From the NCBI RefSeq assembly GCF_003018115.1, contig NZ_CP027457.1: a DNA stretch of 64,000 nt, one strand, 5' to 3'. Position 1 is the first letter of the stretch. Each line of letters begins with the position of its first letter. A program made the position numbers. The stretch comes from Escherichia coli (GTDB lineage Bacteria; Pseudomonadota; Gammaproteobacteria; Enterobacterales; Enterobacteriaceae). Below, one piece after another: positions 51,001 through 54,000 of this stretch.

Positions 51001-54000
51001 TTTGATGAAGCGGACGAACTGTTGGCTGATATGGAGCAGCATCTGCTGGTTTTGCAGCCGGAAGCGCCAGATGCCGAACAATTGAATGCCATCTTTCGGG
51101 CTGCCCACTCGATCAAAGGAGGGGCAGGAACTTTTGGCTTCAGCGTTTTGCAGGAAACCACGCATCTGATGGAAAACCTGCTCGATGAAGCCAGACGAGG
51201 TGAGATGCAACTCAACACCGACATTATCAATCTGTTTTTGGAAACGAAGGACATCATGCAAGAACAGCTCGACGCTTATAAACAGTCGCAAGAGCCGGAT
51301 GCCGCCAGCTTCGATTATATCTGCCAGGCCTTGCGTCAACTGGCATTAGAAGCGAAAGGCGAAACGCCATCCGCAGTGACCCGATTAAGTGTGGTTGCCA
51401 AAAGTGAACCGCAAGATGAGCAGAGTCGCAGTCAGTTGCCGCGACGAATTATCCTTTCGCGCCTGAAGGCCGGCGAAGTCGACCTGCTGGAAGAAGAGCT
51501 GGGGCATCTGACAACGTTAACTGACGTGGTGAAAGGGGCGGATTCTCTCTCGGCAATATTACCGGGCGATATCGCCGAAGATGACATCACAGCGGTACTC
51601 TGTTTTGTGATTGAAGCCGATCAGATTACCTTTGAAACAGTAGAAGTCTCGCCAAAAATATCCACCCCACCAGTGCTTAAACTGGCAGCCGAACAAGCGC
51701 CAACCGGTCGCGTGGAGCGGGAAAAAACGACGCGCAGCAGTGAATCCACCAGCATCCGTGTAGCGGTAGAAAAGGTTGATCAATTAATTAACCTCGTCGG
51801 CGAGCTGGTTATCACCCAGTCCATGCTTGCCCAGCGTTCCAGCGAACTGGACCCGGTTAATCATGGTGATTTGATTACCAGCATGGGGCAGTTACAACGT
51901 AACGCCCGTGATTTGCAGGAATCAGTGATGTCGATTCGCATGATGCCGATGGAATATGTTTTTAGTCGCTATCCCCGGCTGGTGCGTGATCTGGCGGGAA
52001 AACTCGGCAAGCAGGTAGAACTGACGCTGGTGGGCAGTTCCACTGAACTCGACAAGAGCCTGATAGAACGCATTATCGACCCGCTGACCCACCTGGTACG
52101 CAATAGCCTCGATCACGGTATTGAACTGCCAGAAAAACGGCTCGCCGCAGGTAAAAACAGCGTCGGAAATTTAATTCTGTCTGCCGAACATCAGGGCGGC
52201 AACATTTGCATTGAAGTGACCGACGATGGGGCGGGGCTAAACCGTGAGCGAATTCTGGCAAAAGCGGCCTCGCAAGGTTTGACTGTCAGCGAAAACATGA
52301 GCGACGACGAAGTCGCGATGCTGATATTTGCACCAGGCTTCTCCACGGCAGAGCAGGTCACCGACGTCTCCGGGCGCGGCGTCGGCATGGACGTCGTTAA
52401 ACGTAATATCCAGGAGATGGGCGGTCATGTCGAAATCCAGTCGAAGCAGGGTACTGGCACTACGATCCGCATTTTACTGCCGCTGACGCTGGCCATCCTC
52501 GACGGCATGTCCGTACGCGTTGCGGATGAAGTTTTCATTCTGCCGCTGAATGCTGTTATGGAATCACTGCAACCCCGTGAAGCCGATCTCCATCCACTGG
52601 CCGGCGGCGAGCGGGTGCTGGAAGTGCGGGGTGAATATCTGCCCATCGTCGAACTGTGGAAAGTGTTCAACGTCGCGGGCGCGAAAACCGAAGCTACCCA
52701 GGGAATTGTGGTGATCTTACAAAGTGGCGGTCGCCGCTACGCCTTGCTGGTGGATCAATTAATTGGTCAACATCAGGTTGTAGTTAAAAACCTTGAAAGT
52801 AACTATCGCAAAGTCCCCGGCATTTCTGCTGCGACCATTCTTGGCGACGGCAGCGTGGCACTGATTGTTGATGTCTCCGCCTTGCAGGCGATAAACCGCG
52901 AACAACGTATGGCGAACACCGCCGCCTGAATGAGTAAAAAGGTAACAATATGACCGGTATGACGAATGTAACAAAGCTGGCCAGCGAGCCGTCAGGCCAG
53001 GAATTTCTGGTATTTACCCTTGGTGATGAAGAGTACGGTATTGATATCCTGAAAGTGCAGGAGATCCGCGGCTACGATCAGGTAACACGGATTGCGAACA
53101 CACCAGCGTTTATCAAAGGCGTCACGAATCTGCGCGGCGTTATTGTGCCGATTGTTGACTTACGAATTAAGTTCAGCCAGGTGGATGTGGACTATAACGA
53201 CAACACGGTAGTTATCGTCCTGAATCTCGGACAGCGGGTGGTCGGCATCGTGGTTGACGGCGTTTCAGATGTGCTTTCATTGACGGCGGAGCAAATTCGT
53301 CCGGCACCGGAATTTGCCGTGACGCTTTCAACAGAATATCTCACTGGACTGGGCGCACTGGGCGACCGGATGTTGATTCTGGTGAACATCGAAAAACTGC
53401 TGAACAGCGAAGAGATGGCGCTGTTAGATAGCGCGGCGTCAGAAGTGGCGTAATTCTCCCTATTTCCTCAATTGAAATGAACCCGATGATCTGCGCATCG
53501 GGTTTTTTATTTCAATTTCGCGGCGGGTGGCATCAGCAATAAAGTTTCCCCCTTCCTTGCCGATAACGAGATCAACTTGTTTTCAGGAAGGTGCCTTATG
53601 ATTAACCGTATCCGCGTAGTCACGCTGTTGGTAATGGTGCTGGGGGTATTCGCACTGTTACAGCTTATTTCCGGCAGTCTGTTTTTTTCTTCCCTTCACC
53701 ATAGCCAGAAGAGCTTTGTGGTTTCCAATCAATTACGGGAACAGCAGGGCGAGCTGACGTCAACCTGGGATTTAATGCTGCAAACGCGCATTAACCTGAG
53801 TCGTTCAGCGGTGCGGATGATGATGGATTCCTCCAATCAACAAAGTAACGCCAAAGTTGAATTGCTCGATAGCGCCAGGAAAACATTGGCCCAGGCCGCG
53901 ACTCATTATAAAAAATTCAAAAGCATGGCACCGTTACCTGAAATGGTCGCTACCAGTCGTAATATTGATGAAAAATATAAAAACTATTACACAGCGTTAA

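Follow-up and report, generated by a model that had tools for sequence, protein, structure and literature searches.

The cheA gene in the 64,000-nucleotide stretch of Escherichia coli DNA that we analyzed (the window; contig NZ_CP027457.1) almost certainly gives rise to one mRNA that is translated from two in-frame starts, producing a long protein, CheA-L, and a short one, CheA-S, with codon 98 serving as the internal start. The short-CheA start is real, was correctly interpreted in an earlier sequence-only reading of this DNA, and is textbook knowledge that was already in hand. What we observed here are the sequence features of the site, its identity to that of K-12, its conservation, the constraint on synonymous codons around it, and its predicted accessibility; the production of a protein from codon 98 and the function of that protein are taken from the literature on K-12 derivatives.

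The tandem starts go back to work that PMC7696710 and PMC2644175 cite: the existence of two CheA proteins dates from 1980 (Smith & Parkinson 1980) and the codon-98 start from 1991 (Kofoid & Parkinson 1991). CheAS is described as 'initiated at codon ATG-98', and the M98L substitution removes it (PMC7696710). Likewise, CheA 98-655 is equated with CheAS, and M98I provides the long form without CheAS expression (PMC2644175, citing Sanatinia et al. 1995). PMC8745638, citing McNamara & Wolfe 1997, gives 'gagguga' as the E. coli ribosome-binding site of long CheA and 'gaagga' as that of the short form, and both are present in the window. CheAS binds the phosphatase CheZ, helping to bring it to receptor clusters, and cells can carry out basic chemotaxis without CheAS (PMC7696710, PMC3676780, PMC2644175).

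The window is from the E. coli chromosome, and the 2.2 kb at positions 50800-53000 are 100% identical to the corresponding region of several complete genomes (O169:H41 and related strains). In the record of strain F9792, whose sequence is identical, this region carries motB, cheA and cheW, with cheA corresponding to window positions 50965-52929. With motB upstream, cheW downstream and 100% identity to annotated E. coli cheA, the gene is confirmed as the cheA orthologue of the motA-motB-cheA-cheW operon, and its 654-amino-acid translation from GTG 50965 matches the solved P1 chains of E. coli CheA. The features relevant to its two starts are the following.

50954..50960, + strand: Shine-Dalgarno sequence GAGGTGA of the long start (sequence; duplex energy of -7.2 kcal/mol; named in PMC8745638).
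50965..52929, + strand: long cheA coding sequence, encoding CheA-L, with 654 amino acids, a GTG start, and the stop codon included in the coordinates (translation; RefSeq annotation of the identical F9792 sequence; long coding sequence of MG1655).
51106..51108, + strand: codon CAC of His48, the autophosphorylation site, found in the long form only (sequence, translation).
51226..51258, + strand: codons 88-98, the conserved, A/U-rich and weakly structured translation initiation region for CheA-short, ATC AAT CTG TTT TTG GAA ACG AAG GAC ATC ATG (synonymous entropy, opening energy, RNAalifold).
51247..51251, + strand: Shine-Dalgarno-like pentamer AAGGA, within GAAGGA, 4 nt before the ATG (sequence; -5.4 kcal/mol to the anti-Shine-Dalgarno; 'gaagga' in PMC8745638).
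51256..51258, + strand: ATG of codon 98, the start codon of CheA-short (sequence; ATG in 81/81 loci; literature; start of the short coding sequence of MG1655).
51256..52929, + strand: CheA-short coding sequence of 557 amino acids, stop included, nested in frame in cheA (short coding sequence of MG1655, 1674 nt long and beginning 291 nt downstream of the long start; surroundings of the start identical).

The Shine-Dalgarno of the long start overlaps the motB stop codon (TGA, 50958-50960), motB ending at 50960, an arrangement that would suit translational coupling of motB and cheA. The GTG start of cheA itself lies 4 nt after the motB stop codon (window 50954-50967). Searches of 5426 complete E. 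coli genomes with the cheA region (window 50800-53000) found a match in 5380; about 46-48 had none, and two of the matching places for cheA were plasmid-borne rather than chromosomal.

Counting in frame from GTG 50965 as codon 1 confirmed that the ATG at 51256-51258 is cheA codon 98, which lies downstream of His48 and within the P1 domain. The claim that the short form lacks His48 held as well, residue 48 (the phospho-accepting His of CheA) being encoded by CAC at 51106-51108, upstream of codon 98. The sequence-only reading had also placed an AAGGA 7-11 nt upstream of the ATG; the pentamer is there, but it lies 5-9 nt from the A of the ATG, and a distance of 7-11 nt is obtained only by starting the count at the G, a minor matter of convention. 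GAAGGA occupies 51246-51251 and is followed by the 4-nt spacer CATC before the ATG at 51256. A spacing of 4 nt between Shine-Dalgarno and AUG is closer than the usual optimum, and the match itself is short, at 5 bp.

The start region is that of K-12. The whole gene differs from its K-12 counterpart at 18 nucleotides, and the resulting amino-acid changes (S158L, N259S and K484E) are near neither start site. Codons 1-140 contain only two differences, both synonymous (codons 22 and 27), and there are zero between -40 and +30 of codon 98. Compared with the K-12 tandem starts, start(L) and start(S), we therefore see the same gene, the same operon, the same ATG at codon 98 and the same GAAGGA, with no start-site difference. 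The K-12-identical start region, the published ATG-98 start and the annotation of MG1655 together bear out the earlier proposal that this is the known tandem start of CheA-short: the RefSeq record of MG1655 carries two cheA coding sequences, the short one starting 97 codons (291 nt) into the long one. The RefSeq record of F9792, the sole non-K-12 annotation that we inspected, gives the long cheA coding sequence only; should that record be representative, other E. coli annotations would lack the nested isoform as well.

In the mechanism that we favor, ribosomes initiating at GTG 50965 would make CheA-L, the 654-amino-acid kinase with His48, and ribosomes binding independently at the internal region and starting at ATG 51256 would make CheA-S, a protein of 557 amino acids that would lack the first 97 residues, including His48, and keep the rest of P1 and the remainder of the protein. 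The internal site would owe its activity to the AUG together with GAAGGA, a short Shine-Dalgarno match, and a stretch rich in A/U and with little structure (CUGUUUUUGGAAAC...), which could leave the site open to 30S subunits inside the coding region. The relative contributions of the Shine-Dalgarno match and of the open A/U-rich context are something that we infer rather than observe.

Within E. coli, the start is embedded in unusually uniform sequence. Of 5378 E. coli genomes, 5344 share the exact 80 nt centered on it (51216-51295), compared with 3607, 648 and 3470 genomes for three control 80-nt segments of cheA. To look across genera we took one genome per species and retrieved 80 Enterobacterales cheA loci, ranging from Citrobacter to Xenorhabdus at 62-96% protein identity, which together with the window sequence made 81 loci. 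Codon 98 is ATG in every one of these, and the peptide NLFLE(T/A)KDIMQ around Met98 is likewise kept in all 81. Retrieval relied on six peptide patterns, of which one, ETKDIMQE, may favor loci that keep Met98; loci with EAKDIMQQ, which are unable to match that pattern, also keep it.

We calculated synonymous-codon entropy over 456 columns with a conserved amino acid, normalized it per amino acid, and evaluated it in 11-codon sliding windows. Codons 88-98 gave the lowest value of the 475 windows, with an observed/expected ratio of 0.45 across the 81 Enterobacterales loci; the next independent minima were codons 1-11, at 0.76, and codons 376-386, at 0.80. In 1000 shuffles of the per-codon values, made within amino-acid classes, the lowest ratio was 0.59, and 0.45 was never reached. 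The strongest nucleotide-level constraint in cheA is thus directly upstream of codon 98, a pattern that fits an initiation region located within coding sequence. CTG TTT TTG GAA, in the region of window positions 51232-51255, is nearly invariant at synonymous positions: Phe91 is TTT and Glu93 is GAA in 81/81 loci, and Leu92 is the minor codon TTG in 68/81, compared with 15% of Leu codons gene-wide.

The same region is predicted to be open. Using unpaired probabilities from local folding, we computed the energy required to open positions -17 to +8 around each cheA codon. At codon 98 this opening energy was 3.55 kcal/mol, compared with a gene-wide mean of 8.45 (sd 2.63), which ranked it 16th most open among 645 codons and first among the 17 in-frame ATGs scored. 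In 40 other species, the mean at codon 98 was 5.26 kcal/mol, compared with 9.05 gene-wide, at a median percentile of 0.08. A/U makes up 63% of the 30 nt upstream of codon 98 in E. coli and 70% of them in the consensus, compared with 47% of the whole gene. RNAalifold, run on the 77 distinct sequences from -60 to +43, returned essentially no consensus structure (-0.19 kcal/mol), which argues against a conserved RNA structure that presents the AUG.

Two other routes to a short product were considered and set aside. A crude scan of 50700-51500 for sigma-70-like promoters, which did not cover sigma-28, found none, and a separate mRNA for the short form, made from an internal promoter, thus received no support from this simple scan. 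Inspected by eye, the U5 tract does not lend itself to -1 frameshifting: G UUU UUG is no true slippery heptamer, and the -1 frame stops after ~15 codons.

We next weighed the possibility that codon 98 is an ordinary internal Met, with AAGGA a chance match and no second protein made. The motif by itself is indeed unremarkable. We scored each of the 49 in-frame ATG, GTG and TTG codons of cheA by the energy of the duplex that the preceding 18 nt form with the 16S anti-Shine-Dalgarno. Codon 98, at -5.4 kcal/mol, ranked third among the 18 in-frame ATGs and seventh among all 49 start-like codons, and AAGGA is simply what Lys-Asp looks like when written AAG GAC. The bare motif at codon 98 is therefore not beyond chance within cheA; codon 98 rises above chance because of its predicted accessibility, its conservation and the literature. 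CheAS made from ATG-98 is lost in both M98I and M98L (PMC2644175, PMC7696710), the short coding sequence is annotated in MG1655, the strongest synonymous constraint of the gene falls directly upstream, and the site is unusually accessible here and in the 40 other species. Against this evidence, a chance match has next to no prospect of being the right explanation.

A more specific challenge comes from Met81 (ATG 51205-51207), which might be the start of the short form or of a third form of CheA. Its Shine-Dalgarno is stronger than that of codon 98: the heptamer GAGGTGA at 51197-51203 has a duplex energy of -7.2 kcal/mol and is the same as that of the long start (50954-50960), and Met81 is kept in 77/81 Enterobacterales loci. 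However, only 1 nt separates this heptamer from the ATG, the opening energy of 7.29 kcal/mol is near the gene average, the codon for Gly79, which forms part of the heptamer, varies between genera, and synonymous constraint peaks at codons 88-98 rather than at 70-81. The literature, moreover, describes two products, the short one of which is lost when codon 98 is changed (PMC7696710, PMC2644175). On spacing, accessibility, conservation and the literature we thus reject Met81 as the true internal start, and it is very hard to believe that either form begins there; Met81 is probably unused, though judged by sequence in isolation it scores better than the actual short start.

How the surroundings of codon 98 vary bears on the claim in the sequence-only reading that the start is conserved. 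That claim stands for the ATG and for the codons upstream of it, across the Enterobacterales, but fails for AAGGA. Lys95 is AAG, with AAGGA present, in only 5/81 loci: the window, an Escherichia genome, Cedecea neteri, Izhakiella, and an Erwinia metagenome-assembled genome. In the other 76 it is AAA, giving AAAGA(T/C)AT(T/C)ATG, for which the best anti-Shine-Dalgarno duplex is -3.3 kcal/mol or weaker, compared with -5.4 kcal/mol in E. coli, and in most of which this best duplex uses a GGA that is 13 nt from the start. Conservation of the Shine-Dalgarno across genera was accordingly not observed, most of the 81 loci having no canonical one. With AAGGA missing from 76/81 loci, the conserved element that specifies the short start must be something else. 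We infer that the ancestral determinant would be an open, U-rich ribosome landing site together with the AUG, and that E. coli would have added the Shine-Dalgarno match in its own lineage.

A fuller version of this idea, which we put forward tentatively and with a minority share of our confidence, is that the conserved determinant is the fixed, unstructured, U-rich CUG UUU UUG GAA AC, followed by AAAGAUAUU and AUG, rather than a Shine-Dalgarno. In that case start(S) would be essentially independent of a Shine-Dalgarno in most Enterobacterales, and the AAGGA of E. coli, recently gained through synonymous changes in codons 95-97, may have raised the ratio of CheA-S to CheA-L; or else the fixed bases might be the binding site of some hitherto unknown regulator of that ratio. 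The broader possibility that the constraint on codons 88-98 reflects a further overlapping function, either a regulator site (for a CsrA-like RNA-binding protein or a small RNA) that sets CheA-S:CheA-L or an mRNA processing site, draws on the fact that particular bases are fixed, not mere A/U-richness (TTT and GAA at every locus, and the rare TTG at 68/81 compared with 15%), and on the absence of a canonical Shine-Dalgarno in most genera, which implies that something besides Shine-Dalgarno pairing is being preserved. No regulator is known for this site, however, the crude scan of 50700-51500 showed no sigma-70-like promoter, RNAalifold gave no conserved RNA structure, and the same data are explicable by the need for an open, U-rich ribosome landing site. 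We consider such a further function unlikely.

Coexpression of long and short CheA in Enterobacteriaceae is the subject of McNamara & Wolfe 1997, judging from its title and from how it is cited, and our loci are in keeping with it in that Met98 and the surrounding peptide are shared by all 81. The Shine-Dalgarno match of E. coli, in contrast, is not shared, 76/81 loci being of the AAAGAT type. The IF2 isoforms of infB, among others (reviewed in PMC11005335 and PMC12350097), likewise arise when a single gene is translated in one frame from two sites of initiation, and their shorter product is without an N-terminal functional element; these genes are unrelated to cheA, and the likeness is one of mechanism only. 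The short-CheA start carries little weight as a discovery and is useful as a positive control, a genuine nested isoform having been picked from raw sequence. The peak of constraint before codon 98 and the confinement of the Shine-Dalgarno motif to few lineages may be of some modest interest to the field of internal initiation.

Elsewhere in the window, 4.1 kb between fliE and yedK (12243-16379) are absent from F9792, which over cheA is 100% identical. This segment encodes an EmrE-like SMR transporter, a YbcL-like PEBP protein, a YbcM-like AraC regulator and an OmpC/NmpC-like porin, and it looks like a DLP12-type prophage remnant. Of the 5426 complete E. coli genomes, 922 match, at one place, at least 80% of a 4.4-kb query that spans it (12100-16500), the best match being 98.9%.
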